Assembly (NCBI GenBank): GCA_034521515.1
Contig: JAXHMH010000002.1
Coordinates: 24,379 to 88,378 of the forward strand
Reading direction: 5' to 3'
DNA length: 64,000 bases
Source: Candidatus Saccharimonadota bacterium
GTDB lineage: Bacteria > Patescibacteriota > Saccharimonadia > Saccharimonadales > JAXHMH01
The notes below the pieces were generated by a model. The model saw only the letters and a program-made list of their open reading frames with translations, searched no databases and had not been told where the DNA came from. The translations under genes and the position numbers were made by a program. Below, piece by piece: positions 4,478 through 43,158 of the stretch; within the stretch, counting starts at the first letter, position 1; every line of letters starts with the position of its first letter.

Positions 4478-4544
4478 GCATATAGTATAGAACGCCGCAG
4501 TATTCTGTGCTACGATGCGTAAGCCGTAAATTTACAATTAAAAA

Positions 4545-4642
4545 ATATCAAGAGAGTGGCAAGGGATCTGACCCGTTGACCCACCAGCAACCTAGCTTTT
4601 TGCAGCCAAGGTGCTACGTTCAGCCCTTTTCGGGGAAGATAT
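4545..4642 (+). promoter_or_regulatory. SAM-I (S-box) riboswitch aptamer upstream of metK
   Basis: ATATCAAGAGAGTGGCAAGGGATCTGACCCGTTGACCCACCAGCAACC...AAGGTGCTAC...GAAGATAT matches the S-box core (AUCAAGAG, AGGGA, GACCCG, AGCAACC, AAGGUGCUA) with P1 ATATC/GATAT; sits 60 nt before metK ATG. Confidence 0.85.
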
Positions 4643-4702
4643 CAGCACAACACGATGCTCCTTTATCGACCCGAATCAGGACAGATTAAAAGGAGTTTTT
4701 TC

Positions 4703-5689
4703 ATGTCTGTAAAAAAATCAATCTATAAAACCGCCGAGTCAGTTAGCCCGGGGCACCCCGACAAACTATGCGATCAAATTTCTGACGCCATACTCGATGC
4801 TTACCTGGCTGAGGATGCCGACGCTCGAGTCGCCGTAGAAACTGTTGGCGGTCACGGCAAAGTTTTTATAACTGGTGAAGTGACTTCATCGGCCAAAGTT
4901 GACGTTGCGCCGATTGTTGAGCGGCTCGCGCCAGGCGTAGAGCTGGAAACACGTATCGTTGCCCAGAGTCCAGAAATCGCCCACGGCGTAGATACCGGCG
5001 GTGCAGGTGACCAAGGCATAATGGTAGGTTACGCATCGTCAGAAACGGACGAACTACTGCCACTGGAAGTCGTGCTAAGCCGCAGATTAAACCAAGCCCT
5101 TTATGAGCGCTTGCCTCACGACGGTAAAACGCAAGTAACCGTCCGCGATGGCGTCATACAGTCAATCGTAGCTAGCTTCCAAAACGCCCCACAACCTGAA
5201 CTCGAATCAGCAGTAAAGTATTGGCTCTCAAGTTCATCAACTATTACCTATGATCTATCAACTATCAATTTACACATTAACCCCGCCGGCGATTGGCACC
5301 AAGGCGGCTTTGACGCCGATGCCGGACTAACCGGCCGCAAACTCGTGGTAGACAACTACGGCCCCAGCGTGCCGATTGGTGGCGGCTGCTTTTCTGGCAA
5401 AGACCCCAGCAAGGTTGATCGTTCCGCCGCCTATATGGCACGCAAAATCGCCGTAGATTACTTGCGGGAGCGTAAAGCCCAAGAAGTGTTCGTGCACCTG
5501 GCATATGCCATAGGCTACAACCAACCACTAGAAGCAACTGTCACTATTGACGGAGCTCAAGAAGTTGTTGAGGGCTATGACCTAACGCCAGCCGGTATCA
5601 TCAAATCGCTCGATCTCAAACGGCCAATCTACGAACAAACCGCCCGCTTCGGCCACTTCGGCCACCCCAACTTTCCTTGGGAAAAATAG
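4703..5689 (+). CDS. metK: S-adenosylmethionine synthetase (compact, 328 aa)
   Basis: MSVKKSIYKTAESVSPGHPDKLCDQISDAILDA...GAGDQGIMVGYA...GGGCFSGKDPSKVDRSAAY...FGHFGHPNFPWEK; start set at ATG 4703 preceded by AAAGGAG. Confidence 0.95.
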   Translation: MSVKKSIYKTAESVSPGHPDKLCDQISDAILDAYLAEDADARVAVETVGGHGKVFITGEVTSSAKVDVAPIVERLAPGVELETRIVAQSPEIAHGVDTGGAGDQGIMVGYASSETDELLPLEVVLSRRLNQALYERLPHDGKTQVTVRDGVIQSIVASFQNAPQPELESAVKYWLSSSSTITYDLSTINLHINPAGDWHQGGFDADAGLTGRKLVVDNYGPSVPIGGGCFSGKDPSKVDRSAAYMARKIAVDYLRERKAQEVFVHLAYAIGYNQPLEATVTIDGAQEVVEGYDLTPAGIIKSLDLKRPIYEQTARFGHFGHPNFPWEK

Positions 5690-5838
5690 AAATAACATAG
5701 CCAGATACTCGTAATACCTTTGGTTAAAAGTTTCCGCGCTGTAGTAATACTATTAAGGTGGATTATGCGGGGGTTGCTGATAACTTCAAGAATCCTATTT
5801 CAACCTTCTTCGACAAAGTCTAGTGATATACTCCTAGC

Positions 5839-6267
5839 ATGAGCGAAAACACAGAAACCCCTCAGAAGCACTGGTGGTTGTATGTTTTGAAGCTGGAGCA
5901 GGGCAAGTTTTACGTTGGGATTACTTCTAAAACACCAGAAGAGCGGTTTCAGCAGCATGTTAACGGTTTTCTTGGTGCGCAGTGGACAAAAAAATATAAA
6001 CCAATTGAGCTAACCTACAAAGAGGACCTAGGTAACGTAACACTAGAGCAAGCTAAGCTAGCTGAAAATATGAAAATACGTATGTATATGAATATGTACG
6101 GTGATGAAAACGTACGTGGCGGCGACCTAAACTACAGTGGTAAGTATTTCTACAGGTTTGGGAGATTCCATCGTGATGAGGATTGGCAGATCGTGACTGT
6201 GATCCTTTTCCTATCGATTGTAATAACACTACTTTTGCTGGACAAGTTAGGGCTAGTTAGCTTGTGA
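5839..6267 (+). CDS. GIY-YIG domain protein with C-terminal TM helix
   Basis: WWLYVLKLEQGKFYVGITSKTPEERFQQH resembles the GIY-YIG N-terminal motif; hydrophobic tail IVTVILFLSIVITLLLL. Confidence 0.65.
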   Translation: MSENTETPQKHWWLYVLKLEQGKFYVGITSKTPEERFQQHVNGFLGAQWTKKYKPIELTYKEDLGNVTLEQAKLAENMKIRMYMNMYGDENVRGGDLNYSGKYFYRFGRFHRDEDWQIVTVILFLSIVITLLLLDKLGLVSL

Positions 6268-11250: not shown

Positions 11251-12225
11251 ATGATGCGCACCCCTTTTTCAGGAGAAATCGAAAGCCCAATTGTGAATTT
11301 TCAATGCCTGCACGCTATGCGCGGAGCAGCGGGCGACGAAAAATTGATTTCTCGCTTGGAGCGAGGTGGAATACAAGAAAAATGTGAAGCCGGCGAAGCG
11401 AGGCTGGAACAAGCTTTTGCACTACCGGATAGTTTTGACGACAAACGGCTTGAACTGCTTTCTAGTGCCGAAGCAAATTGGCAAAACTGCATAATGAACT
11501 ACGATACAATTCGAGCAGGGCATGAATCCAGTGCAGGTAAGTCCCTAACGCACCTAGCCTATCTGCAAACATATCAATGGCTACTATTAAATAAAACCCT
11601 GCCTCCTGAATATATTGCAAAGAAAACTTACAAAGATCTTATTGGCGTAGGTGAGTGGCATAGCTATAAACATAGGGAAATGTCTTCTGAGCTAAAAAGC
11701 TTAGAAGAGTCTGAGTACAACACACAAAAGGTAAATGGCATCAAAAGCGAGCGTAGTAGGCTGGCTGGGAATATGACAGAAATTAGCCTAAAGCTACTGC
11801 TAAAAAGATTTGGTATATACGAACTAAAAGATCGGAGCTGGTGCGCAATACCCTCTCTACTGACAGAGAACCACGGACAAGGCAGCACTGCAAGCGTTAA
11901 TCGACGTTGGGGTATATCAGTATTAACTGATCCCGACGAACTAGGAGAACCTGAACTAACCTACAAAGTACAGTCTAAAACTAGCGATACTTGGGAGCAA
12001 AAGTCACCGCCAGACGACAACATTGCTCTGGTTTGCCTAAACCCAGATTTACGACTTGAGGGGGAGTCCAAACTGCCCGCAAGTACTATCATCCACGAGT
12101 GTAAATTTGAAGTAAACGAACCGGATAATCCAAACTACTTAAGCGTAAAACAACGCCTTGAGAAACGTAGCCAATTACTACTTGAGACTATTGATAGACA
12201 AAAAATACTTCGTGACACTGGATGA
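11251..12225 (+). CDS. hypothetical protein (orphan)
   Basis: Long ORF; start placed at ATGATG 11251 just after the stop of the upstream gene (track ORF starts at 11218 inside it). No motif recognised. Confidence 0.6.
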   Translation: MMRTPFSGEIESPIVNFQCLHAMRGAAGDEKLISRLERGGIQEKCEAGEARLEQAFALPDSFDDKRLELLSSAEANWQNCIMNYDTIRAGHESSAGKSLTHLAYLQTYQWLLLNKTLPPEYIAKKTYKDLIGVGEWHSYKHREMSSELKSLEESEYNTQKVNGIKSERSRLAGNMTEISLKLLLKRFGIYELKDRSWCAIPSLLTENHGQGSTASVNRRWGISVLTDPDELGEPELTYKVQSKTSDTWEQKSPPDDNIALVCLNPDLRLEGESKLPASTIIHECKFEVNEPDNPNYLSVKQRLEKRSQLLLETIDRQKILRDTG

Positions 12226-12380
12226 GGGGCTCGGCCACGTCCCGCCGACCCGTCCGGCTTTCCGCCGGAAAGTCGGGTCACATCAATCCGTGAGTAACAC
12301 GATTTTGTTCGGCTTTGCCGGGGTCGCAATCGCGACGCGCCCGTACGAAAACGCCCCAAGGGTTTTAATTCGTTTACGCC

Positions 12381-12465
12381 TGGTGCCGCGGGAGGGACTC
12401 GAACCCTCAAGCCGTAAGGCATGCGATTTTGAGTCGCACGCGTATACCAATTCCGCCACCGCGGC
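12381..12465 (-). tRNA. tRNA-Leu (anticodon CAA), CCA encoded
   Basis: Minus strand GCCGCGGTGGCGGAATTGGTATACGCGTGCGA-CTCAAAA-TCGCA + variable arm + GAGGGTTCGAGTCCCTCCCGCGGCACCA. Confidence 0.9.
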
Positions 12466-13878: not shown

Positions 13879-14018
13879 ATTCCCCCTGCATCAAAAACAC
13901 AATAAAATACGTTCTTAACAATAGGAACATGCCAAGGTCAGACCTTGGCACAAAAAAAGATACAAGCTGTATCCTCGCTGCACAAGGAACGTCCTTGTAC
14001 AGTTTGTGGCACTAATTT

Positions 14019-14060
14019 CTGCACCCTACACCCTGAACCCTAAACCCTATACCCTATACC
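14019..14060. repeat. C-strand heptamer array (CCCTNNA)n, left flank of DUF1566 gene
   Basis: ctgcaccctacaccctgaaccctaaaccctataccctatacc; 14044-14060 is the exact reverse complement of 16118-16134. Confidence 0.9.
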
Positions 14061-14119
14061 TCAAACTGTCCACTGTTAACTGTAAACTATCCATTAAAAG
14101 ACCCGCATTGTCTCTTAGG

Positions 14120-15979
14120 CTAGCGTACCGGCCAGACGTAGTTGTTGAAGGTCTTGCCACGGGAGTTGGTGAGGCCGGCGCCCAGGTCTACGTGCCAGGC
14201 GTCAGACGTATTAGGAGCGTAGGTAGAAGACGACCAATACCAGGTGGGCACCAGACCAGAAAACGGATGGCCGACTGGGAGAGCTGGAGTAGAATGTTGG
14301 TGGCTCATAAGGCTGCGAAACTCACGGCGGCTTGGCAACCGCCAATCCCCAGCCACAGAGCCATCGGTAAGACTACAGCTTGCACTAGCTAGACCATTAG
14401 CGTCACTCAGGGCTTGTGTCCAGGTGCGTGTACCAAAACAGTTGGCGTCTTTGAGCCATATGAGCCCTGTCAGGTTGTCTGTCACTGTGCCATCACTGTT
14501 GTCAGTGAAGCGTGGGTCTGGCCATGCAAGACCCATCTGGTACTCACCATCTTGGCCAGTGCCAGCACAGGAGATGACGGTGCCACCTGCATCGTAGCAG
14601 GTATCTTGGCCGGTGGCAGCAGGTTGCGCTGGCCAGTCAGGTTCTACATCTGCAGCCGTTCCGGTTAAGTACCCCCACTCGCTACTGCATAACCCCCAGT
14701 AGGTCTGTCCGTCTAGGACATCACTTGGCTGAGCACAGTTGGTATCATCTACTGCTGGCATGACTCCCATGATGTCATTGAGGCTATACATGGTGGTGGT
14801 ACTTGGACCAGAAGTTGGACCAACAAAGCCGGTTTGGGTTAGTGCGGAGGTGCCGGTTGTAAGTCGGTTATAAATTTGGGTGAGGCTGGGCTTCTGTGAG
14901 GTAGGGCTATTTGGGCCGCTGGGTGGGGTGAGTTGAGCGTGGGCTACGCCACTGCGTGGCAGAAAACTCCCGAGCCGGGTCAGAAGTGAACGGTACCAAG
15001 TGGTAGAGCTAGCAAAGGCAGCATCTTCTAGGGTTGCTCCGCCATGACTGTTATCCATAGCAATATGGTCTGTGGGCGGATTGTGTGGCGCGAAAGCGAT
15101 ACTGGAGGTGCCACCGCGGACGGGCCAGACAGAGTGGTTGTTGGTCTTGCCGTAGTTTTCGGTGGTGCCATTATTATAGTACACAAACCAGGCACGAGAC
15201 GCATTCGGTACGTAGGTAGAAGACGACCAATAGTAGTAGTTTGTTACTACACCCGAAAACGGGTGGCCTGAGGGTATACGTGGTGCCGATGTTACACCTA
15301 AGTCTAGGAGTGATTCCAATTCATAAATGTTAGGCAACCGCCAATCCCCAGCCACAGAGCCATCCGTAAGACCACAACTTGCACTCGCGAGACCGTTAGC
15401 ATCACTCAGGGCTTGTTCCCAGGTGCGGGTACCAAAACAGTTAGCGTTCTTAAGCCATATCAGGCCAGTCAGGTTATCCGTCACGGTACCGTCAGCGTTA
15501 TCGGTAAAGCGTGGGCTGGCGGTTTCGCCCATTTGGTATTCCCCGTCTTGACCAGTGCCAGCACAGGATATAACACTACCAGCAGCGTCATAGCAGGTGT
15601 TTTGACCAGTAGCTGCGAGTCGAGCTGGCGAATTAAAGCTTGGGCCGAACCCACTGCCCGCGCACAAGCTCCAGTAGGTCGTACCGGGTATAACCTGGCT
15701 TGGCTCAGCACAATCCACGTCTGCTTCCGGCAACAGGCCGAACAGTTCATCCAGGCTGCACATTGGGGTGGTGTCGCCTGGGCCGGTGGTTGGTTCGGTG
15801 AAGGTTGCGACCATAGTACCGGCGGCTCCGGTTTCTAGGCGGTTGCATAGGTCATCTAGGGTGTAGCTTTGGCTGGATGGGTCGGTTGGTGGGGCTGGTG
15901 GGTTTAGGCTAGCAAACACGGCACCGCCGATACCAAGCAGTAGTACGGCAATCAGGATAGGGACTACCCGCTCGCCCAT
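14120..15979 (-). CDS. membrane-anchored surface protein with two tandem DUF1566 (Lcl C-terminal/C-type-lectin-like) domains
   Basis: N-terminal TM; twice repeated TGQ.TCYDA.G..ISCAGTGQDGEYQMG...RFTDN.DGTVTDNLTGLIWLK.ANCFGTRTW.QALSDANGLASASC.LTDGSVAGDWRLP...WSSSTY.PN...AW; visibly GC-richer than neighbours (not computed). Confidence 0.8.
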   Translation of the reverse strand: MGERVVPILIAVLLLGIGGAVFASLNPPAPPTDPSSQSYTLDDLCNRLETGAAGTMVATFTEPTTGPGDTTPMCSLDELFGLLPEADVDCAEPSQVIPGTTYWSLCAGSGFGPSFNSPARLAATGQNTCYDAAGSVISCAGTGQDGEYQMGETASPRFTDNADGTVTDNLTGLIWLKNANCFGTRTWEQALSDANGLASASCGLTDGSVAGDWRLPNIYELESLLDLGVTSAPRIPSGHPFSGVVTNYYYWSSSTYVPNASRAWFVYYNNGTTENYGKTNNHSVWPVRGGTSSIAFAPHNPPTDHIAMDNSHGGATLEDAAFASSTTWYRSLLTRLGSFLPRSGVAHAQLTPPSGPNSPTSQKPSLTQIYNRLTTGTSALTQTGFVGPTSGPSTTTMYSLNDIMGVMPAVDDTNCAQPSDVLDGQTYWGLCSSEWGYLTGTAADVEPDWPAQPAATGQDTCYDAGGTVISCAGTGQDGEYQMGLAWPDPRFTDNSDGTVTDNLTGLIWLKDANCFGTRTWTQALSDANGLASASCSLTDGSVAGDWRLPSRREFRSLMSHQHSTPALPVGHPFSGLVPTWYWSSSTYAPNTSDAWHVDLGAGLTNSRGKTFNNYVWPVR

Positions 15980-16097: not shown

Positions 16098-16245
16098 AGG
16101 GAAGGGCTAGGGTACAGGGTATAGGGTATAGGGTGTAGGGTGGAGACAGGGTTAAGGGTGAAGGGTTTAGGGTGGAGAGATTAGGATGAAATGTTCTGGG
16201 GTTTAGGGTTTAGGGTTGTGTGGGGGTATGGGGGCTAGGGGTTAG
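16098..16245. repeat. G-strand heptamer array (GGGTNNA)n with about 17 G-tracts, includes (TTTAGGG)2-3
   Basis: gggaagggctagggtacagggtatagggtatagggtgtagggtgg...gggttaagggtgaagggtttagggtgg...ggggtttagggtttagggttg...ggggtatgggggctaggggttag, about 120 nt upstream of the DUF1566 start codon. Confidence 0.9.
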
Positions 16246-27545: not shown

Positions 27546-28082
27546 AAGCCAGCACTCCATCCTCCCCACTTTTGGCAGCAAAAGTAGGCAAAACTGCTGG
27601 GCTGCGTTTTTGCCTTGATGTATCTGTTGATACAAAACAGGCTCGCTGGTTCGTCTCTTTTTGCGGCGCAGCAGGCTTTGCCTGGTGGCAGGCAAAAAGG
27701 GAATGCTGTCGGAACTCCCCCTCACCATCTCTTTCGAGAGTGGTGAGGGGTCAGACAGCTCTCGCGCCCAAGGGCGCCTCTTTTACACAACATCTAGTCA
27801 GGACTTTGCAGAGCCAGACCCCGGAATGGCTTCGCCATTCCGGTTAATTATGTGTTCTTTAAAAAGAACACAACTAATGAGGGTCACATCTGAAAAACAG
27901 AAGCGAAGGAGTGCTGGTTGGACGAGTCAAGCCGGTAGTCAAGCTCCGCCAAAGTAACTAGAAAAACTGGCGGAGCCGCTTGTCGTTCTGCCGGCGCGGC
28001 CAACCAGTGCTGCTTCGTACTCTTGTTTTTTCAGTCGTGACGAGCTTTTTGGTTACTTTTTAGCGGACAAAAAGTAACAGGG
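27546..28082 (+). ncRNA. hairpin-dense repeat element, copy A (candidate large structured RNA; family unidentified)
   Basis: Paralog of 42629-43158; at least 8 hairpins plus an 18-bp long-range helix; compensatory differences between copies; G-U pairs valid only on + strand. As a repeat this is certain; as an RNA gene it is inference. Confidence 0.55.
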
Positions 28083-32378: not shown

Positions 32379-32398
32379 TTGGTGACCTCACGGAGAAT
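32379..32398. repeat. 20-nt duplicate of the tRNA-Glu 3' end
   Basis: ttggtgacctcacggagaat at 32379-32398 is identical to 32523-32542. Confidence 0.9.
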
Positions 32399-32523
32399 AT
32401 TGAAATATAATCCGCCCGTTTGTCGCTAAAGCGACGGGGGATTAGCGAACTCTGGGGTTCGATTCGTCCGCCAGTCGACGGACCACCAAACAAAAACACC
32501 CACTCGGGGTGGGTGACTTTGTT

Positions 32524-32598
32524 TGGTGACCTCACGGAGAATCGAACTCCGATTTTCAGGATGAGAACCTGATGTCCTAACCGTTAGACGATGAGGCC
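32524..32598 (-). tRNA. tRNA-Glu (anticodon CUC), CCA encoded
   Basis: Minus strand GGCCTCATCGTCTAACGGTTAGGACATCAGG-TTCTCAT-CCTGAAAATCGGAGTTCGATTCTCCGTGAGGTCACCA. Confidence 0.9.
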
Positions 32599-37867: not shown

Positions 37868-39424
37868 ATGAGTAGTAAAAAATTACCGATTGTGGCAATT
37901 GTTGGCCGTGCGAACGTTGGCAAGTCCAGCTTATTTAACGCTATACTTTCGCGCCGTGAAGCAATCGTAGCAAGAGAAGCCGGAACAACCCGCGACGCTG
38001 TTTGGGCAAAAGCCACTGTATTGGGCCAAGCGAAGTCTTCGGCGCATTTGGATGGAGCGCACGGAAGCGACGAGCAGCGGACTGAGCCGTATAAATCATA
38101 CGGTGAGGGAGCAGTGGAGCCGGTGACACAGCGATCCGCCAAAAAGGGTGGTGGAGTTTCTGGCTCCGCCAGAAAGCAGACCACCCTGGTGCGCCAAGAC
38201 TTCTGGTTAGCCGATACTGCTGGGATTAAAGACCCCGAGGATGACTTTGAGTTCACTATCCAAGAACAAATAACTCAAGCCGCCGAGAGTGCCGATGTTA
38301 TCTGGGTTGTCGTAGAAGCGGATGTGGCAATAAACGAAGAAGATCGTAGAGTCGCCAAGATGGCGCTTAAGTCAAAAAAGCCGGTCTTTTTGGTTGTAAA
38401 TAAAATAGACAAAGCCAAAAAGGCCAGTTCCAAAGATTATCAGCGTCTGGGCATAAAGCAGATTTTTCTTACTAGCACCACGCAAAACAGAGGTATTGGA
38501 GACCTTCTTGATGAGCTTATCCAAGAGATCCCAAACATATCTCTGCCCGAGCCAGACGAACGACTCCGGATTGCATTGTTGGGCCGACCAAACGTTGGTA
38601 AATCACGACTGTTTAACACACTGGCTAAGAAACAGCAGGCAATCGTAGCCGATAGAGCCGGTACAACCCGCGACATTAACCGCGCTATCGTGCGTTATCA
38701 GGGCAAAGAGATTGAACTTATGGACACTGCCGGCATACGACGTAACGGCAAGATAGAGAAGGGCATCGAACGCTTTAGCGTAATCCGATCTTTAAGCGCC
38801 ATAGAACAAGCCGACATCTGCTTGTTGCTGCTTGATGCAAACGAACTACACGTTACGCTTGACCAGAAAATAGCTGGCATGGTTAAGGAATCCGGGAAAG
38901 GCCTGATACTAGTCGTTAGTAAATGGGACAGCCTTGATAAAGACGCCTATACTCGCGACAGTGTGGCACCACGTATTGTTCACGATTTTGACTTTACGCC
39001 TTGGGCACCATTAGTTTTCACTAGCGCCGTAACTGGTCAAAATGTCACCAAATTGTTCGATATGGCTCTACATATCGAAAAACAACGCCAGATTATTATC
39101 AAGACAACCGAACTAAACCGCTGGCTCGGTGATATCACCAACAGCCACCCTCCGGCTGGCCTAAAGAACCGGCAACCTAAACTTAATTACATCGTCCAAG
39201 AAGCCGATAACCCGACCAATTTTAAGGTGTTTGGGGCGCACACAAAGTTCCTGCACTGGAGCTATAAGCGATTTATGGATAAAAGTTTGCGCGAAAAGTA
39301 TGGCTTTGAAGGTACGCCGGTGAAATTTTGGTTTTTTGAAAAACACGAAACTCACAAACACGGTGCAAGCCCCACAAAAGAGCGCAACAAAGAAAACCGC
39401 CGCCGCGAACGCAAGAACAGCTAG
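37868..39424 (+). CDS. der: ribosome-associated GTPase Der/EngA carrying a ~57-aa insertion in GTPase domain 1 and a basic tail
   Basis: G1 GRANVGKSSLFN, G2 TTRD, G3 DTAG; second domain GRPNVGKSRLFN...DTAGIRR...SKWD; KH-like C-terminus; tail KERNKENRRRERKNS. Confidence 0.9.
   Translation: MSSKKLPIVAIVGRANVGKSSLFNAILSRREAIVAREAGTTRDAVWAKATVLGQAKSSAHLDGAHGSDEQRTEPYKSYGEGAVEPVTQRSAKKGGGVSGSARKQTTLVRQDFWLADTAGIKDPEDDFEFTIQEQITQAAESADVIWVVVEADVAINEEDRRVAKMALKSKKPVFLVVNKIDKAKKASSKDYQRLGIKQIFLTSTTQNRGIGDLLDELIQEIPNISLPEPDERLRIALLGRPNVGKSRLFNTLAKKQQAIVADRAGTTRDINRAIVRYQGKEIELMDTAGIRRNGKIEKGIERFSVIRSLSAIEQADICLLLLDANELHVTLDQKIAGMVKESGKGLILVVSKWDSLDKDAYTRDSVAPRIVHDFDFTPWAPLVFTSAVTGQNVTKLFDMALHIEKQRQIIIKTTELNRWLGDITNSHPPAGLKNRQPKLNYIVQEADNPTNFKVFGAHTKFLHWSYKRFMDKSLREKYGFEGTPVKFWFFEKHETHKHGASPTKERNKENRRRERKNS
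38032..38203. mobile_element. in-frame palindromic insertion with terminal inverted repeats inside der (MITE/RPE-like)
   Basis: TIRs gaagtcttcggcgc (38032-45) and gcgccaagacttc (38191-203) are 13/14 complementary. Internal hairpins ccgtat/atacgg 38087-103 and agggtggt/accaccct 38145-87. Falls between the G2 and G3 motifs, where Der proteins I recall have only about 20 aa. Confidence 0.5.
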
Positions 39425-40249: not shown

Positions 40250-40525
40250 CTACGCATCCAGCTCATCCTCCACGCCCAGCTGCCTTAACATACTGCGAGC
40301 GGCCGTAATAATCTCTTCGCTGTCTTCCTTAAAGCTTTTGCCGTAATCATCGCTCGAGAATTGCCGGGATTCAAGCTCCTTTTTGGCCTCTCTGATCTTA
40401 GAGATCAGTCCTTCAACATCATCAATCGGCCAATCTTTTCGGCCACTCATAACATCCGTTTCGCGTTCGGTGTCGCCGTAATAGTACTTATCCCCGCACT
40501 CTTCCAGAATTAAGTTATACCACAC
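40250..40525 (-). CDS. small acidic hypothetical protein
   Basis: 91 aa, helical, D/E-rich. Confidence 0.5.
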   Translation of the reverse strand: MWYNLILEECGDKYYYGDTERETDVMSGRKDWPIDDVEGLISKIREAKKELESRQFSSDDYGKSFKEDSEEIITAARSMLRQLGVEDELDA

Positions 40526-40557
40526 AACCGGCCAAAACTAAGGTACGTCGATAAGTC

Positions 40558-40884
40558 TTATAGGCTTGATTCGAGCTCAAGCGTTTCTTTTATGCTAGTC
40601 ATGCCCAGACCCACAGTAACTTGAATAAGATCTTCCTCGAGCTGACTTATTATCTCCAGCTGGGCACTTTCCGAGCTTTTGAGGTTCAGTGCACCTTCCT
40701 CCCCATCATTCCACGCAAACTGCCTTTGGCTCAAAAGACCCTCAAGCTGAGCCCGCTTTTCAAATGCAGCCGGCAGCAATAAGTCAAACGCTGCGTCTGC
40801 GCCATATTCTGGATCTTTGGGGTCAAGCTCCAGTGCTCTTATGTCATCCTTATCCAGCCTAATAATGTTGTCAACAAATTCCAT
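40558..40884 (-). CDS. small acidic hypothetical protein
   Basis: 108 aa, helical, D/E-rich; same strand as and adjacent to 40250..40525. Confidence 0.5.
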   Translation of the reverse strand: MEFVDNIIRLDKDDIRALELDPKDPEYGADAAFDLLLPAAFEKRAQLEGLLSQRQFAWNDGEEGALNLKSSESAQLEIISQLEEDLIQVTVGLGMTSIKETLELESSL

Positions 40885-40919
40885 ATATAAACCTATAAAT
40901 TATTATACTGTTATCTAAA

Positions 40920-40963
40920 AGAGCCTCAAGAGGGTGAAGATTGCCAGTGGCAATCTGCAAGGC
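40920..40963. repeat. 44-bp perfect direct repeat, copy 1
   Basis: gagcctcaagagggtgaagattgccagtggcaatctgcaaggcc; contains hairpin gattgcc-agt-ggcaatc. Confidence 0.95.
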
Positions 40964-41024
40964 CCATCCTTCCAGCGGAAAGACAGGTGGGGTCGCCAGA
41001 GGTGGTTGGGCACCCTAACTGAAA

Positions 41025-41068
41025 TGAGCCTCAAGAGGGTGAAGATTGCCAGTGGCAATCTGCAAGGC
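41025..41068. repeat. 44-bp perfect direct repeat, copy 2 (105-bp period)
   Basis: Identical to 40920-40963. Confidence 0.95.
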
Positions 41069-41258
41069 CGGAAGCCCGGATGGCATATGCCACCGAGCTG
41101 AGGTGGGGCCGACCGCATTTTCAAAGAAAATGACGGGTGGGGCTGGGCGCCTCAAATAAAAACAGGCTTCCAGAGGGGGTGGGCACCACTGGAAGCCTGA
41201 TTCCACCCTTCAAGCCCACCAGCGAAGCATCTAGCAACAACGTAAGACGTGCCGTGCC

Positions 41259-41317
41259 TCCCTCACCACTTTTTAAAGAAATAATTTTTTGGCCTATTTC
41301 ACTAAAAAGTGGTGAGG
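41259..41317. repeat. 16-bp perfect-stem hairpin sharing the CCCTCACCA/TGGTGAGGG arms of the 530-nt elements
   Basis: ccctcaccacttttta (41259-74) pairs with taaaaagtggtgaggg (41302-17); compare cccctcacca/tggtgagggg at 27718-50 and 42800-32. Confidence 0.8.
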
Positions 41318-41612
41318 GAATCTTTTGGACTCGCTTTGAAGTACAGATTATCACTCATGATAACCTGTGGGGTCTTAAAGGGGTTAGTTTGTTTTAGAAC
41401 GCTTTTTGCCGATAGAGCAAAGTGGAGGGTAACAACTTTGATACAGAATCCGAAGACTCCGCTATGGCGCGCTCTAAAACAATCTAACAACATAGTTCTA
41501 ACTTTTGCTGTTAGAATTGGGGGTATAAGGTACGTAAAATCCTATTTAGGACTTACGAATTGCTATTCTAGCAAGAATGTTGCCTTATGTCAATACTAAA
41601 AAACATTATTTT

Positions 41613-42479
41613 ATGAAAATCAAGAAGCTTACGCTAAAATCTACCGAATTTCCAGAGTGTCTAAAGAACATACCCAGTCCGCCAAAGCAAATTTTTGTCC
41701 GCGGCAACCCATCTGTACTTCTTCAGAATAACCCTGTCTTAACAGTTGTCGGTACGCGTAAGGTAAGCCCTTACGGGCGTGAGGTAACTGATAAGTTCGT
41801 CCGAGAAGTCGCCTCAAAAGGCGTGACCATTGTGAGCGGCCTAGCGCTAGGGGTGGATATTTTGGCTCATAGAGCTGCTTTATCCGTCGGAGGTAGTACT
41901 ATTGCAGTATTACCCTGCAGCCTGGATTCAATATATCCAAGCTCTCACTACCATGATGCTATGAAAATAGTAGAGCAGGGCGGAGCGCTTATAAGTGAGT
42001 ACCCTGAAGGCACCGAGCCCTTTAAGACAAACTTTATTGAACGAAACCGACTGGTTTCTGGACTAGGTGATGGGGTGCTCATTACAGAGGCTGCTGAAAA
42101 GTCCGGAACTCTGCACACTGCCAACTTTGCACTAGAGCAGGGCAAAACTGTCATGGCAATTCCAGGCAATATTACCAGCCCGCTCAGCAAGGGCACCAAC
42201 AACCTCATTAAATCTGGCGCACTACCAATTACCGATAGCTCAGATATACTATTTGCTCTGGGAGTTAAAGAAAACAAAGCCAACGAGCAAGTAGAGTTAT
42301 TCGGTGGCGACCAAGGCGAAACAAATATATTAAACCTCATTGCTTCCGGCATAACTGATGCTTCCGAACTGCAGCGCCAAAGTGATTTAAACCCAGGGGA
42401 GTTCAACCAAACGATAACCATGCTAGAGATAAACGGCCGCATACGTTCCCTAGGCGCCGGCCACTGGACTCTTAGCTAG
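41613..42479 (+). CDS. dprA: DNA processing protein A (Smf)
   Basis: MKIKKLTLKSTEFPECLKNIPSPPKQIFVRGN...TVVGTRKVSPYG...IVSGLALGVDILAHRAAL...GTLHTANFALEQGKTVMAIPG; start moved to ATG 41613. Confidence 0.9.
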   Translation: MKIKKLTLKSTEFPECLKNIPSPPKQIFVRGNPSVLLQNNPVLTVVGTRKVSPYGREVTDKFVREVASKGVTIVSGLALGVDILAHRAALSVGGSTIAVLPCSLDSIYPSSHYHDAMKIVEQGGALISEYPEGTEPFKTNFIERNRLVSGLGDGVLITEAAEKSGTLHTANFALEQGKTVMAIPGNITSPLSKGTNNLIKSGALPITDSSDILFALGVKENKANEQVELFGGDQGETNILNLIASGITDASELQRQSDLNPGEFNQTITMLEINGRIRSLGAGHWTLS

Positions 42480-42628: not shown

Positions 42629-43158
42629 AAGCCAGTACACCATCCTCCCCACTTTTGTCATCAAAAGTGGGCAAAACTGCTGGGCTGCGTTTTTGCCTTG
42701 ATGTATCTGTTGATACAGAACAGGCTCGCTGGTTTGTCTCTTTTGCGGCGCAGCAGGCTTTGCCTGGTGACAGGCAAAAAGGGAATGCTGTCGGAACTCC
42801 CCCTCACCATCTCTTTCGAGAGTGGTGAGGGGTCAAACAGTCCTCGCACCCGAGGGCGCCTCATTCTCACAACATCGCTTCAGGGTAAGCCGGAGCCAGA
42901 CCCCGGAATGGCCCGGGCCATTCCGGATAGATACGTGTTCTTTTAAAACACAGGTAACTAGGGTCACATCTGAAAAACAGAAGCGAAGCAGCGCTGGTTG
43001 GACGAGTCAAGCCAGCAGTCAGTCCCGAACAAACAAATAAAGAATGGTGAGGGACCGCTTGTCGTTCTGCTGGCGCGGCCAACCAGTGCTGCTTCGTGCT
43101 CTTGTTCTTTCAGCCGTGACGAGGTTTTGTACTACTTTTGGCAGGCAAAAGTAGTAGG
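42629..43158 (+). ncRNA. hairpin-dense repeat element, copy B (candidate large structured RNA; family unidentified)
   Basis: Paralog of 27546-28082 in the same orientation, between dprA and topA. Confidence 0.55.

Follow-up and report, generated by a model that had tools for sequence, protein, structure and literature searches.

A conserved non-coding RNA gene and, probably, tandem insertion modules lie upstream of dprA in a Saccharibacterium

The question raised by this locus is what fills the intergenic DNA between dprA and a divergent gene for a small acidic protein in a Candidatus Saccharimonadota bacterium. The DNA analyzed, called the window here, is a stretch of 64,000 nt of contig JAXHMH010000002.1, and all positions refer to it. 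A preliminary description had presented the region as a divergent spacer full of repeats and without a credible ORF. Our ORF survey agrees that the intergenic region holds no conserved or credible ORF; a 55-aa ORF at 40934–41101 and other small ORFs in the repeats were discarded because the compensatory changes of the hairpin do not preserve the peptide. The stretch before dprA is not a single repeat-filled spacer, however, as two thirds of it are taken up by an RNA gene on the opposite strand. We consider it probable that the DNA 5′ of dprA consists of two things, the RNA gene (41558–41154, minus strand) and two tandem insertion modules (40917–41151). The RNA gene comprises the following features.

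41154–41558, minus strand: structured non-coding RNA gene, recognized by profile search, covariation, G·U strand bias and MFE z-score
41565–41593, minus strand: promoter of the RNA gene, with a −35 element TTGACA (41593–41588), a 17-nt spacer and a TG-extended −10 element TAGAAT (41570–41565)
41383–41488, minus strand: long-range helix of 14 pairs between GUUAGAUUGUUUUAGAGCG (41488–41470) and CGUUCUAAAACAAACUAAC (41401–41383)
41418–41440, minus strand: hairpin with the invariant C-rich loop UUACCCUCCAC, which contains CCUCC
41259–41319, minus strand: long lineage-specific hairpin with arms CCCUCACCAC and GUGGUGAGGG, in a variable region of the RNA
41203–41220, minus strand: G-rich strand GGUGGGCUUGAAGGGUGG, part of a long-range helix and of a possible pseudoknot
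41163–41199, minus strand: terminal hairpin H with the loop (U/C)GGUGCCCACCCCCUC, an intrinsic terminator with its U-run at 41154–41162

A profile search (nhmmer) found the RNA in 33 genome loci and 16 metagenome loci, one copy in each, and in every Saccharibacteria locus with enough flanking sequence it sits between pth and dprA. The DNA 5′ of dprA is 78–94% identical across more than 30 genomes, while the DprA proteins are only 45–61% identical. Shorter, divergent versions of the RNA in loci L026 and L037 share the promoter and retain the long-range helix, the C-loop, GGUGGG and, ahead of a U-run, a GAUGCCCACCC loop; a motif scan detected the promoter and the H loop in L028, L029 and L034 as well, with the C-loop of these three present only in L029. 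The RNA gene is conserved across an order-level group and, as far as sampled, occurs in Saccharibacteria only.

The gene is about 405 nt long here and about 270–570 nt in relatives; both ends are predicted, the 5′ end from the promoter and the 3′ end within the U-run. In a promoter scan the site, which has a TG extension, scored 11 of 12, and TTGACA/TTGACT-N17-TA(A/G)AAT is found at the matching position in nearly all relatives. It is predicted to be a strong sigma-70-type promoter, placed about 20 nt from the start codon of dprA and back-to-back with it. At the other end, CAGGCUUCCAG...CUGGAAGCCUG followed by UUUUUAUUU (41199–41154, minus strand) forms a predicted intrinsic terminator, and hairpin H and its U-run are kept in relatives, where the convergent pth gene faces them. 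A simple terminator scanner overlooked H on account of its loop being longer than 8 nt; the preliminary description had recorded it as a ggcttccag...ctggaagcc hairpin, and we place its arms at 41160–41176 and 41186–41202. The H loop is invariant and measures 15 nt, and about 30 genomes share the 14-mer GTGCCCACCCCCTC without a change; in the stem, 8 of the 9 pairs show compensatory changes and 99.6% of cells are paired. The invariant loops of the RNA include CCUCC and GCCCACCCCC.

Covariation was assessed in an alignment (A1) of 27 sequences. The fold has 41 pairs with 94.2% of cells paired, compared with 34–61% in slid controls, and double-sided changes affect 23 of the 41 pairs (116 cells), a result equaled by none of 500 shuffles. 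The MFE z-score of the gene is −8.5. The RNA folds into a 5′ hairpin, two nested long-range helices, the CCUCC-loop hairpin and, probably, a pseudoknot. The GUUAGAUUGUUUUAGAGCG/CGUUCUAAAACAAACUAAC helix, which surrounds the C-loop hairpin and a variable domain, changes on both sides in 9 of its 14 pairs, and 96–97% of its cells are paired. In the C-loop hairpin the stem covaries and TACCCTCCACT is invariant in all 27 sequences; ACCUCC and CCCCUCC are retained in the divergent L037 and L026. The CCUCC of this loop resembles an anti-Shine-Dalgarno sequence. The other long-range helix is formed by CUUGAAGGG (41214–41206) and CCCCUUUAAG (41383–41374), with ten pairs by RNAalifold; one CG pair is replaced three times by GC and twice by AU, and the divergent L037 and L026 have further compensatory versions (CCCUAUAAC/GUUAUAGGG and CUCUUUGAC/GUCGAAGAG). 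The GGUGGG of the G-rich strand and the CCCACC of the H loop may pair as the pseudoknot; both partners are invariant and therefore give no covariation signal.

The long hairpin noticed earlier at 41259 has arms of 25 nt each (41259–41283 and 41295–41319) that are 92% complementary, and it is a lineage-specific expansion within a variable part of the RNA. The CCCUCACCAC/GUGGUGAGGG arms recur in hairpins of elements A and B, and the L012 homologue has such a hairpin at a different variable site. That A and B share these arms had been proposed, and indeed CCCTCACCA occurs seven times in the window against 0.35 expected, A and B included. A second proposed link, through GGGCGCCTC, gave three matches against 0.38 expected, two of which are the A and B copies themselves, and this sharing may be chance.

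On the minus strand G·U pairs are frequent and A·C combinations almost lacking, with one U·G kept in 25 of the 27 sequences; these pairs, together with the promoter and the terminator, indicate that the RNA gene is transcribed from the minus strand. They bear directly on the possibility, also raised in the preliminary description, that the region serves dprA or the acidic ORFs as a cis-regulatory leader, in the form of a riboswitch or attenuator that may be tandem. The region is a conserved, structured element adjoining dprA, and three of its segments, X, Y and Z (UCUAAC, GUUAGA and CUAAC), could pair alternatively, as in such a leader. However, the conserved promoter and terminator yield a minus-strand transcript directed away from dprA, the G·U pairs belong to that strand, riboswitch and leader families gave no match, relatives have the RNA without the acidic ORFs, and inspection of the alignments revealed no conserved plus-strand promoter upstream of dprA. 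The leader proposal thus did not hold up, and we regard it as highly improbable. Some relatives have a plus-strand dprA promoter candidate, TTGCAA-17-CATTAT, and others are without one. The genes on the two sides are as follows.

41613–42479, plus strand: dprA with a revised start that aligns with those of relatives; Pfam DNA_processg_A, 1.8e-74
40902–40929, minus strand: promoter-like site of the 108-aa acidic ORF, TTGAGG-16-TATAAT, by consensus match only

From the alignment with relatives and the Pfam match, dprA most likely starts at 41613 and not at 41577 as called, so that ORF callers would seem to mis-set this start; an exact-protein look-up of the 300-aa dprA ORF returned no record, which is consistent with a wrong start. 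Neither of the two small acidic ORFs next to the region has a Pfam match, and both are missing from relatives that retain the RNA, as well as from relatives that bear modules. The −35 element of the promoter-like site of the 108-aa ORF falls within the left flank of module M2 (described below).

The RNA was compared with known families. Rfam searches were run at the gathering threshold, at E≤5 and at E≤10 on the window, a 691-nt region and one homologue, and they yielded only chance microRNA-like matches to the long hairpin. At E≤10 with speed filters on, Rfam 15 contained no family matching window positions 40890–41580 or the L021 homologue (5470–5970), and no riboswitch, T-box or leader model matched the region, a check that the preliminary description had suggested. 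The covariance models of OLE, GOLLD, ROOL, raiA and HEARO in Rfam did not match the RNA, nor did those of 6S RNA and SRP RNA. An ARAGORN scan of the region for tRNA and tmRNA found nothing; ARAGORN and Rfam RF00023, which detect standard tmRNAs in related contigs, find no tmRNA here. Our search of the literature found no published description of the RNA or of the modules. The RNA gene is a stand-alone structured RNA outside described families.

A further reading takes the conserved RNA for a housekeeping RNA, chiefly RNase P RNA, that has diverged so far that Rfam misses it. RNase P RNAs of CPR bacteria do escape Rfam cut-offs, and default thresholds missed them in 10 of 35 closed CPR genomes (PMC8172020). 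The size range of 270–570 nt would fit, and PGAP (NCBI) lists just two non-coding RNAs in one Saccharibacterium. A plus-strand stretch of roughly 20 nt, AAUAGGGGGUAUAAGGUACG, presumably resembles the P15/L15 region of E. coli, but this likeness is on the wrong strand, the strand evidence being for minus. On the transcribed strand, inspection of A1 revealed neither the GAGGAAAGUCC / ACAGAA..GGCUUA P4 motif nor a pairing of the 5′ and 3′ ends (P1); RNase P, tmRNA, SRP and 6S models did not match inputs of 500–700 nt at E≤10 with speed filters on; the RNA has an intrinsic terminator of its own; and related contigs hold standard, detectable tmRNAs. An RNase P identity was rejected on strand, motifs and these model searches, and we judge the housekeeping reading very unlikely.

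The stand-alone RNA resembles OLE, GOLLD, ROOL and raiA in its size of several hundred nucleotides, its many covarying helices, invariant single strands and pseudoknot, as well as in its restriction to one lineage, its lack of coding potential and a genomic context that is silent on function. Unlike them, it has no sequence or structure match in Rfam 15, is single-copy at a fixed place in the order pth-RNA-dprA, and comes with a strong promoter of its own and a terminator loop that looks functional. With C-rich RNAs of the RoxS/RsaE type it shares invariant C-rich motifs, including CCUCC, in hairpin loops; in contrast to these it is three to five times larger, has long-range tertiary pairing, and lies among window genes with few upstream Shine-Dalgarno motifs. 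A role as an anti-Shine-Dalgarno sponge was also considered and is weakened by the rarity of GGAG/GAGG, which stands upstream of only 3 of the 40 long ORFs of the window, close to background.

The sequence comparisons establish that the gene exists, on which strand it lies and how it folds; its function we infer. Most likely, the RNA acts in trans as a stable and abundant molecule, serving as a scaffold for protein or as a pairing partner through its invariant C-rich loops. A secondary cis effect of the RNA gene on dprA is probable; the transcription units of the two must either overlap or be mutually exclusive. A central role is likely for an RNA that is single-copy, kept at one locus throughout the sampled group, and equipped with invariant loops and a near-perfect promoter. 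Saccharibacteria are ultra-small epibionts whose genomes measure about 1 Mb and for which hardly any regulatory RNA is described; a paper on the TM7x transcriptome states that no small RNA of that organism is validated. The RNA is missing from Rfam and is therefore passed over in genome annotation. Some Saccharibacteria are now open to genetic manipulation, which makes the RNA a testable target.

The rest of the intergenic DNA, downstream of the terminator, is taken up by the two modules.

41022–41151, plus strand (provisional): module M1, of beta type, aligned and with a conserved fold
40917–41021, plus strand: module M2, a shortened copy with the left flank and hairpin 1 of M1 and a truncated middle
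41022–41069, plus strand: copy 2 of the 48-nt repeat, left flank and hairpin 1 of M1
40917–40964, plus strand: copy 1 of the 48-nt repeat, left flank and hairpin 1 of M2

The perfect 44-bp repeats that had first drawn attention are at 40921–40964 and 41026–41069, one base away from where they had been placed, and extend to 48 nt with one mismatch (40917–40964 and 41022–41069) at a period of 105, which none of 100 shuffles matched. Both copies contain the hairpin GATTGCC-AGT-GGCAATC, as had been observed, and a search of the 64-kb window for the 44-mer with up to three mismatches found these two adjacent copies only. M1 consists of a left flank AAAUGAGCCUCA, AGAGGGUGAA, hairpin 1, UGCAAGG, a helix P2 with hairpin 2, GAGGUGGGGCCGA, hairpin 3 and a right flank CUGGGCGCC; the 3′ part of M2 has hairpin 3 (GGGGUCGCCAGAGGUGGU) and a right flank UGGGCACC. 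The GGTGGGG motifs listed in the preliminary description are present at 40986, 41102 and 41136, with GGGGGTGGGC in a hairpin loop, but they are not enriched window-wide (7 against 4.5 expected, a number that 20 of 100 shuffles reach). In alignment A3, M1 lines up with 14 other beta modules, the fold being conserved and supported by compensatory changes. Its identity to the sole full module of L004 is 81%, and L004 retains only a 3′ remnant of the M2 counterpart; the best match of M1 elsewhere is a tRNA-Lys-linked module in L045 (86.6% over 82 nt), compared with about 72% for same-site modules of other genomes. Outside the repeat copies M1 and M2 have diverged, and hairpin 1 differs in the L004 orthologue, which suggests that the two repeat copies were probably made identical by local gene conversion.

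Two other explanations of the repeat were weighed. The 15-bp palindromes ATTGCCAGTGGCAAT could be operator sites for a regulator of the divergent genes, being perfect, placed in a divergent promoter region and spaced by 105 bp, or ten helical turns of 10.5 bp. Among genomes, however, their sequence varies and covaries as a helix (AATGCC/GGCATT, ACTGCC/GGCAGT, AGTGCC/GGCACT), spacing and copy number differ, and the same hairpin is also found 3′ of tRNA and tmRNA genes. The operator explanation was rejected, since the palindrome changes as a helix and is not kept in sequence, and we hold it to be extremely improbable. The tandem repeat could also be an artefact of metagenome assembly, given that an independent Logan contig with the neighboring gene stops inside repeat copy 1. 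M1 and M2 differ beyond the 48 nt, so that no simple collapse or expansion can account for them, L004 has an orthologous full module and the remnant of a second, and many independent assemblies have tandem modules; an artefact is accordingly most improbable. The end of the Logan contig does indicate that assemblers break at the repeat, which is a practical caution.

M1 and M2 belong to a family of three-hairpin units of about 105–130 nt each, arranged in different genomes as tandem arrays of one to three copies and falling into three subtypes. Compensatory changes were seen in 15 of the 24 predicted pairs of alpha/gamma modules and in 7 of the 16 of beta modules. A pattern scan, with 17 fixed bases and about half of its 120 matches being chance ones filtered by context, found 18 metagenome loci with modules by the invariant loop and others downstream of tRNA or tmRNA genes; these tRNA- and tmRNA-linked modules come from metagenome contigs of Saccharibacteria type, of provisional taxonomy. 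In viral contigs the same scan gave two chance matches within coding regions. The tRNA and tmRNA inserts carry exact direct repeats of the 3′ end of the gene, from T-loop to CCA (18, 19, 21, 21, 21, 19, 19 and 19 nt), and inverted copies of the T-arm of 8–13 nt; the L114 module is bracketed by a 19-nt direct repeat. Orthologous tRNA-Glu and tRNA-His genes occur both with and without the insert, and at the RNA gene modules are present in only 3 of the 33 genome loci. All three tRNA genes of the window carry related or degenerate inserts, with an exact 3′-end repeat at tRNA-Glu and tRNA-Ser and, at tRNA-Leu, a doubtful copy found by eye (8 of 18 positions mismatched in an automated test). Next to the window's inserts no recombinase or integrase is found; the neighboring genes include an ABC ATPase, a sortase and an amino-acid kinase.

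The modules have the same sense as the adjacent gene at tRNA and tmRNA loci and are antisense at the RNA gene. Another reading is that they are accessory 3′ domains of the RNA, reached by minus-strand read-through, with 41558–40917 as one long RNA. Read on the minus strand, the modules preserve the order of the single-stranded terminal-loop pieces (GGUGCCCA ... CCCC ... CACCCUCU), a 3′-arm copy and a U-run close every module, and L012 has a weak U-run behind its main hairpin. In the window, by contrast, the main hairpin followed by UUUUUAUUU is a good terminator, and the copied 3′ arms usually lack a 5′ partner and so form no terminators. Base-pair counts on the plus strand are 11 G·U to 3 A·C for beta modules, against read-through, and 7 to 8 for alpha/gamma modules, which have no strand bias; RNAfold prefers the plus strand in 24 of 31 modules. 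An invariant A·G mismatch and a GGA/GA purine internal loop would become C·U and pyrimidine loops on the minus strand, elsewhere the module runs in the same direction as the tRNA and tmRNA genes, and 30 of the 33 genome homologues have no module. We therefore consider read-through domains unlikely.

The module family, its architecture and its presence or absence at orthologous sites are features of the sequences themselves; for its mobility we infer a mechanism. The modules would be small non-autonomous insertion elements, or descendants of such elements, that enter the invariant loops of stable-RNA genes and restore the 3′ end of the gene; each copy is flanked by copies of terminal sequence from its target. 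After entry, tandem duplication followed by homogenizing gene conversion could have produced the nearly perfect 48-nt repeat, in which the 44-bp core is perfect. If true, the modules could be a new route for DNA to colonize stable-RNA genes without a recombinase of its own. We propose jointly, though doubtfully, that the RNA is the essential core of an undescribed Saccharibacteria RNP with the C-rich loops as its working surface, and that the modules are a new class of very small, protein-less mobile elements homing to the invariant terminal loops of stable RNAs. In this doubtful reading, homing would depend on carried segments complementary or identical to the target (the T-loops of tRNA and tmRNA, the loop of the RNA) next to the scaffold, and a host recombinase or recombination during natural transformation would provide the catalysis.

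Known systems offer partial parallels to such insertion. Tyrosine-integrase islands use the T-loops of genes for tRNA and tmRNA as their targets, as Williams reportedly described in 2002. Like these T-loop integrative elements, the modules show a T-loop-to-CCA direct repeat of 18–21 nt, a gene restored by the insert, use of both tRNA and tmRNA genes, and presence or absence at orthologous genes; unlike them, the inserts are 125–190 bp long, have neither ORF nor integrase, combine a folded module with an inverted T-arm copy, and also stand, in opposite orientation, at a hairpin that is not tRNA. The preliminary description had suggested a BOX- or RPE-like modular system, and a recurrent modular repeat family is what we find, though not a high-copy dispersed one, with two adjacent copies in 64 kb. 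With BOX, RUP, ERIC, Correia and REP/BIME elements the modules share small modular structure, a variable tandem number and 3′ flanks near terminators; they differ from these in low copy number, in lacking terminal inverted repeats of fixed sequence, and in their target-derived flanks and strong preference for the ends of stable-RNA genes. The RNA repeats of type III toxin-antitoxin systems, which stand in tandem just upstream of an endoribonuclease toxin gene, do not fit, the adjoining ORFs being small and acidic and without a Pfam match. The right-end RNA of TnpB elements has a scaffold and a flank-derived guide of about 16–20 nt, and IS110 elements have bridge RNAs. The modules may be likened to these guide RNAs by their folded scaffold, followed by 18–21 nt identical to the target, and by a target-complementary segment; the likeness is one of architecture only, as no TnpB, IscB or IS110 gene lies nearby and Rfam gave no match. 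Finally, partial duplicates of hairpin H stand without any module in L008 and L030, and indicate that duplication of the hairpin is possible without a module.

The intergenic region, which has no credible ORF, as the preliminary description had stated, is neighboured by der, pth, two small acidic ORFs on the minus strand, dprA and topA. Relatives of its DprA in the genome collection belong nearly all to metagenome-assembled genomes of Saccharibacteria (Saccharimonadales), the best at 61% identity, and their usual arrangement is pth, a gap of ~450-500 nt and then dprA. The acidic ORFs, missing from most relatives, are a lineage-specific insertion. Since the corresponding position in one relative, L004, is occupied by an unrelated 172-aa ORF (4643-5161), the junction between pth and the RNA locus accepts insertions. 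Der (EngA; 37868-39424, plus strand) is itself 518 aa long, versus 438-461 aa in relatives, the excess being a ~60-residue low-complexity charged insert lying between the N-terminus and the first GTPase domain core.

Features of the pth-dprA interval:
40250-40884, minus strand: small acidic ORFs, one of 91 and one of 108 aa, situated between pth and the RNA locus; no Pfam match
40917-41021: module M2
41022-41151: module M1
41558-41154, minus strand: conserved RNA gene
41593-41565, minus strand: predicted promoter of the conserved RNA (score 11/12, with TG extension)

BLASTN of the intergenic region across 43 dprA loci revealed, immediately 5' of dprA in >30 genomes, blocks with 78-94% DNA identity; the DprA proteins of these genomes share only 45-60% identity. 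Reading of the loci and motif searches located a promoter, TTGACA/TTGACT-N17-TA(A/G)AAT, on the strand opposite dprA, followed 320-540 nt downstream by a hairpin whose loop carries the 14-mer GTGCCCACCCCCTC, identical across about 30 genomes, and then by a U-run. A profile built from the 27 sequences of the RNA alignment found the RNA once, and only once, at each of 33 genome and 16 metagenome loci, and had no other match in the window. In two relatives (L026 and L037) the RNA is shorter (about 270-340 nt), has the identical promoter type and retains the (A)CC(C)CUCC hairpin, GGUGGG, the GAUGCCCACCC loop and the U-run. A motif scan also placed the promoter and terminal-hairpin loop at matching spacing in L028, L029 and L034, among which the invariant C-rich loop was detected only in L029.

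RNAalifold predicted two nested long-range helices and a terminal hairpin, and the hairpin bearing the invariant loop UACCCUCCAC was added to the model. In the alignment the resulting 41 pairs are 94.2% paired, with changes on both sides in 23 pairs (116 cells); none of 500 shuffles reached any of five covariation measures, and pairing fell to 34-61% when partners were slid. The long-range helix is kept in the two shorter versions with new compensatory forms, and folding of the window copy gave a z-score of -8.5. On the minus strand G.U pairs are frequent (one U.G is retained in 25/27 sequences and the terminal stem has ten G.U cells) and A.C is nearly missing, which identifies this strand as the transcribed one. 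We conclude that it carries a deeply conserved gene for a structured RNA not described before. It is also plausible that GGUGGG (41220-41215) pairs with CCCACC in the terminal loop; neither side varies among the sequences. The segments UCUAAC, GUUAGA and CUAAC (41496-41516, 41470-41488 and 41383-41401, minus strand) permit alternative pairings, and in relatives with short forms both partners would be available to a single GUUAGA; such alternatives may constitute a conformational switch.

No Rfam 15 family, riboswitch, T-box and leader models included, matched the region (window at the gathering score, 2.9 kb at E<=5, 691 nt at E<=10) or the L021 homologue (E<=10), and ARAGORN found no tmRNA in the region. 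Elsewhere in the window, a SAM riboswitch (RF00162, 51.5 bits) lies at 4542-4645 (plus strand), upstream of an ORF at 4655-5689. RNase P RNA was considered explicitly because CPR RNase P RNAs can escape Rfam cut-offs (PMC8172020). The P4 motifs and 5'-3' P1 pairing are missing from the conserved RNA, which has its own terminator as 3' end. What we take to be the sole RNase P likeness, a 20-mer resembling the P15/L15 region, sits on the non-transcribed strand. A cis-regulatory leader for dprA or the acidic ORFs, one of the readings first proposed, was likewise rejected, since the RNA points away from dprA and is retained in relatives that lack the acidic ORFs. No published description was found in the literature searched, and a TM7x transcriptome study reported no validated small RNA. 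Both the RNA and the module family described below fall outside every family tested.

From its strong promoter, single copy, order-wide conservation and invariant single-stranded motifs (ACCUUAUACCCCC, UACCCUCCAC, CUAACCCCUUUAAC and GCCCACCCCCUC), we infer that the RNA is stable and abundant and acts in trans with a conserved partner, either protein or RNA. Its CCUCC loop is like an anti-Shine-Dalgarno sequence; Shine-Dalgarno motifs are, however, rare upstream of window genes (3/40, versus 5% background), so that a protein partner or a small number of special targets is favoured over general mRNA sequestration. The distance from the -35 box to the dprA start codon (41613) is ~20 nt, and dprA transcription must therefore start inside or cross the RNA gene on the opposite strand. 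Either exclusion between the promoters or antisense overlap with the dprA leader probably follows as a secondary effect. A conserved plus-strand promoter was not found.

The preliminary description had, in one of its readings, likened the repeats to a modular repeat system, which holds for the left third of the region, where there is a modular repeat family, and misses the main object, the RNA gene on the other strand. The 44-bp direct repeats that it reported are identical 44-mers (40921-40964 and 41026-41069, period 105) that no shuffle reproduced, both copies containing the inner hairpin GATTGCC-AGT-GGCAATC, and the identity stretches to 48 nt with one mismatch (40917-40964 versus 41022-41069). 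The left third (40917-41151) has a single matching place in each of L004, L012 and L015. A metagenome scan with the repeat core AGAGGGTGANNNNTGCCNNNGGCA returned 120 stretches, about half of them chance matches; the true ones share one build, namely AGAGGGUGAG, hairpin 1, CGCAAGG, helix P2 with hairpin 2, GGGGUCGN and hairpin 3. They fall into three subtypes, M1 being of the beta type and M2 a shortened copy. Their folds are supported by compensatory changes, seen in 15/24 predicted pairs of the alpha/gamma alignment and 7/16 of the beta alignment, where M1 and L004 are among the sequences.

Just beside the invariant hairpin, 18 metagenome loci, the window, L004, L012 and L015 carry between one and three modules in tandem; only 3/33 genome homologues have modules at the RNA. 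Their flanks there are copies of the hairpin (left, A-run, 5' arm and AGAGGG; right, UGGGCACCGCU), and the L114 insert is bracketed by an exact 19-nt direct repeat. The orthologous module of L004 has a different hairpin 1, with its second copy reduced to a remnant. Because the rest of M1 and M2 has diverged and the L004 hairpin 1 differs, the near-perfect 48-nt identity is best explained by local gene conversion from one copy to the other. The 48-nt repeat breaks short-read assemblies: the independent assembly L044 (Logan contig SRR26473340_366878), with an identical 108-aa ORF, ends inside repeat copy 1, 66 nt upstream of that ORF. In L008 (5460-5490) and L030 (5452-5475), part of the hairpin (A-run, 5' arm and loop) is duplicated just beside the real one with no module present; these duplicates may be scars or of independent origin.

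On other contigs, modules lie 60-80 nt downstream of tmRNA (six loci) or tRNA (Ser, Lys, His) genes, in the same orientation. The layout is constant: gene, terminator hairpin, inverted T-arm copy (8-13 nt, exact), module, direct repeat (the exact last 18-21 nt of the gene, T-loop to CCA) and second terminator. Three tRNA genes of the window have structured inserts.

Insert regions at tRNA genes of the window:
32380-32598, 1991-2249 and 12210-12465, all minus strand: tRNA-Glu, tRNA-Ser and tRNA-Leu

At tRNA-Glu and tRNA-Ser the same layout recurs with degenerate or different inserts: terminator hairpin, degenerate inverted T-arm copy, 70-130-nt structured insert, exact direct copy of the last 18-19 nt and second terminator. 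The tRNA-Glu insert resembles a module that has lost hairpin 1. At tRNA-Leu a resemblance to a 3'-end copy was seen by eye only, with 8/18 mismatches elsewhere in the automated test, which found no inverted T-arm match. The 3'-end repeat is missing at the orthologous tRNA-Glu(ctc) in five other loci and at tRNA-His in L117. M1 is 86.6% identical over 82 nt to a tRNA-Lys-linked module, versus 72% to the same-site modules of L012, and in hairpin 1 it reaches 97% identity with tmRNA-linked copies. Together these comparisons indicate that modules are gained, lost and exchanged; they behave like insertion elements, not fixed gene parts. The inserts resemble T-loop integration in repeat geometry but differ in being tiny, and no integrase was found near those of the window; the module pattern is absent from viral contigs.

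Several observations favour the plus strand of the window as the module strand: a conserved, purine-rich internal loop (GGA/GA), an invariant A.G mismatch, the G.U pairs of hairpin 3, 11 G.U versus 3 A.C in beta modules, and the preference of RNAfold in 24/31 modules. The alpha/gamma helices have no strand bias (7 versus 8). So oriented, modules share the direction of the gene that precedes them (pth, tRNA or tmRNA) and lie antisense to the conserved RNA, and their flanks are the exact complement of its invariant loop. Candidate routes of insertion are a host recombinase, recombination during natural transformation via the repeated 3' end, or guidance by target-derived flanks.

Two further non-coding elements of ~515 nt, A (27546-28060, following a response-regulator gene) and B (42629-43139, filling the dprA-topA gap), are 89-94% identical to each other. 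The reported sharing of CCCTCACCA between the region and both elements was borne out (7 in the window versus 0.35 expected), as were the hairpins at 41160-41202 and 41259-41319; two of the reported features are weak, namely GGGCGCCTC, whose sharing with A and B mostly reflects that these are copies of one another, and GGTGGGG, which has no window-wide enrichment. The conserved-RNA profile did not detect A or B, and Rfam gave no match to B at E<=5, A being covered by the gathering-threshold scan alone. Short pieces of A/B (the CCCCCTCACCA hairpin region) match L012, L018, L022 and L013. The elements are probably another structured RNA or element. A 32-nt palindrome, TAAACGCGCCAGTCGACTGGCGCGTTTA, has five copies (4404, 13848, 28242, 62940 and 63816), which resemble terminators acting in both directions or a family of REP type. 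Finally, inverted arrays of CCCTAAA-like heptamers (14018-14061 and 16103-16188) flank a 619-aa ORF (14120-15979, minus strand) with an internal ~1-kb tandem duplication of 76-85% identity (14195-14633/15188-15629).
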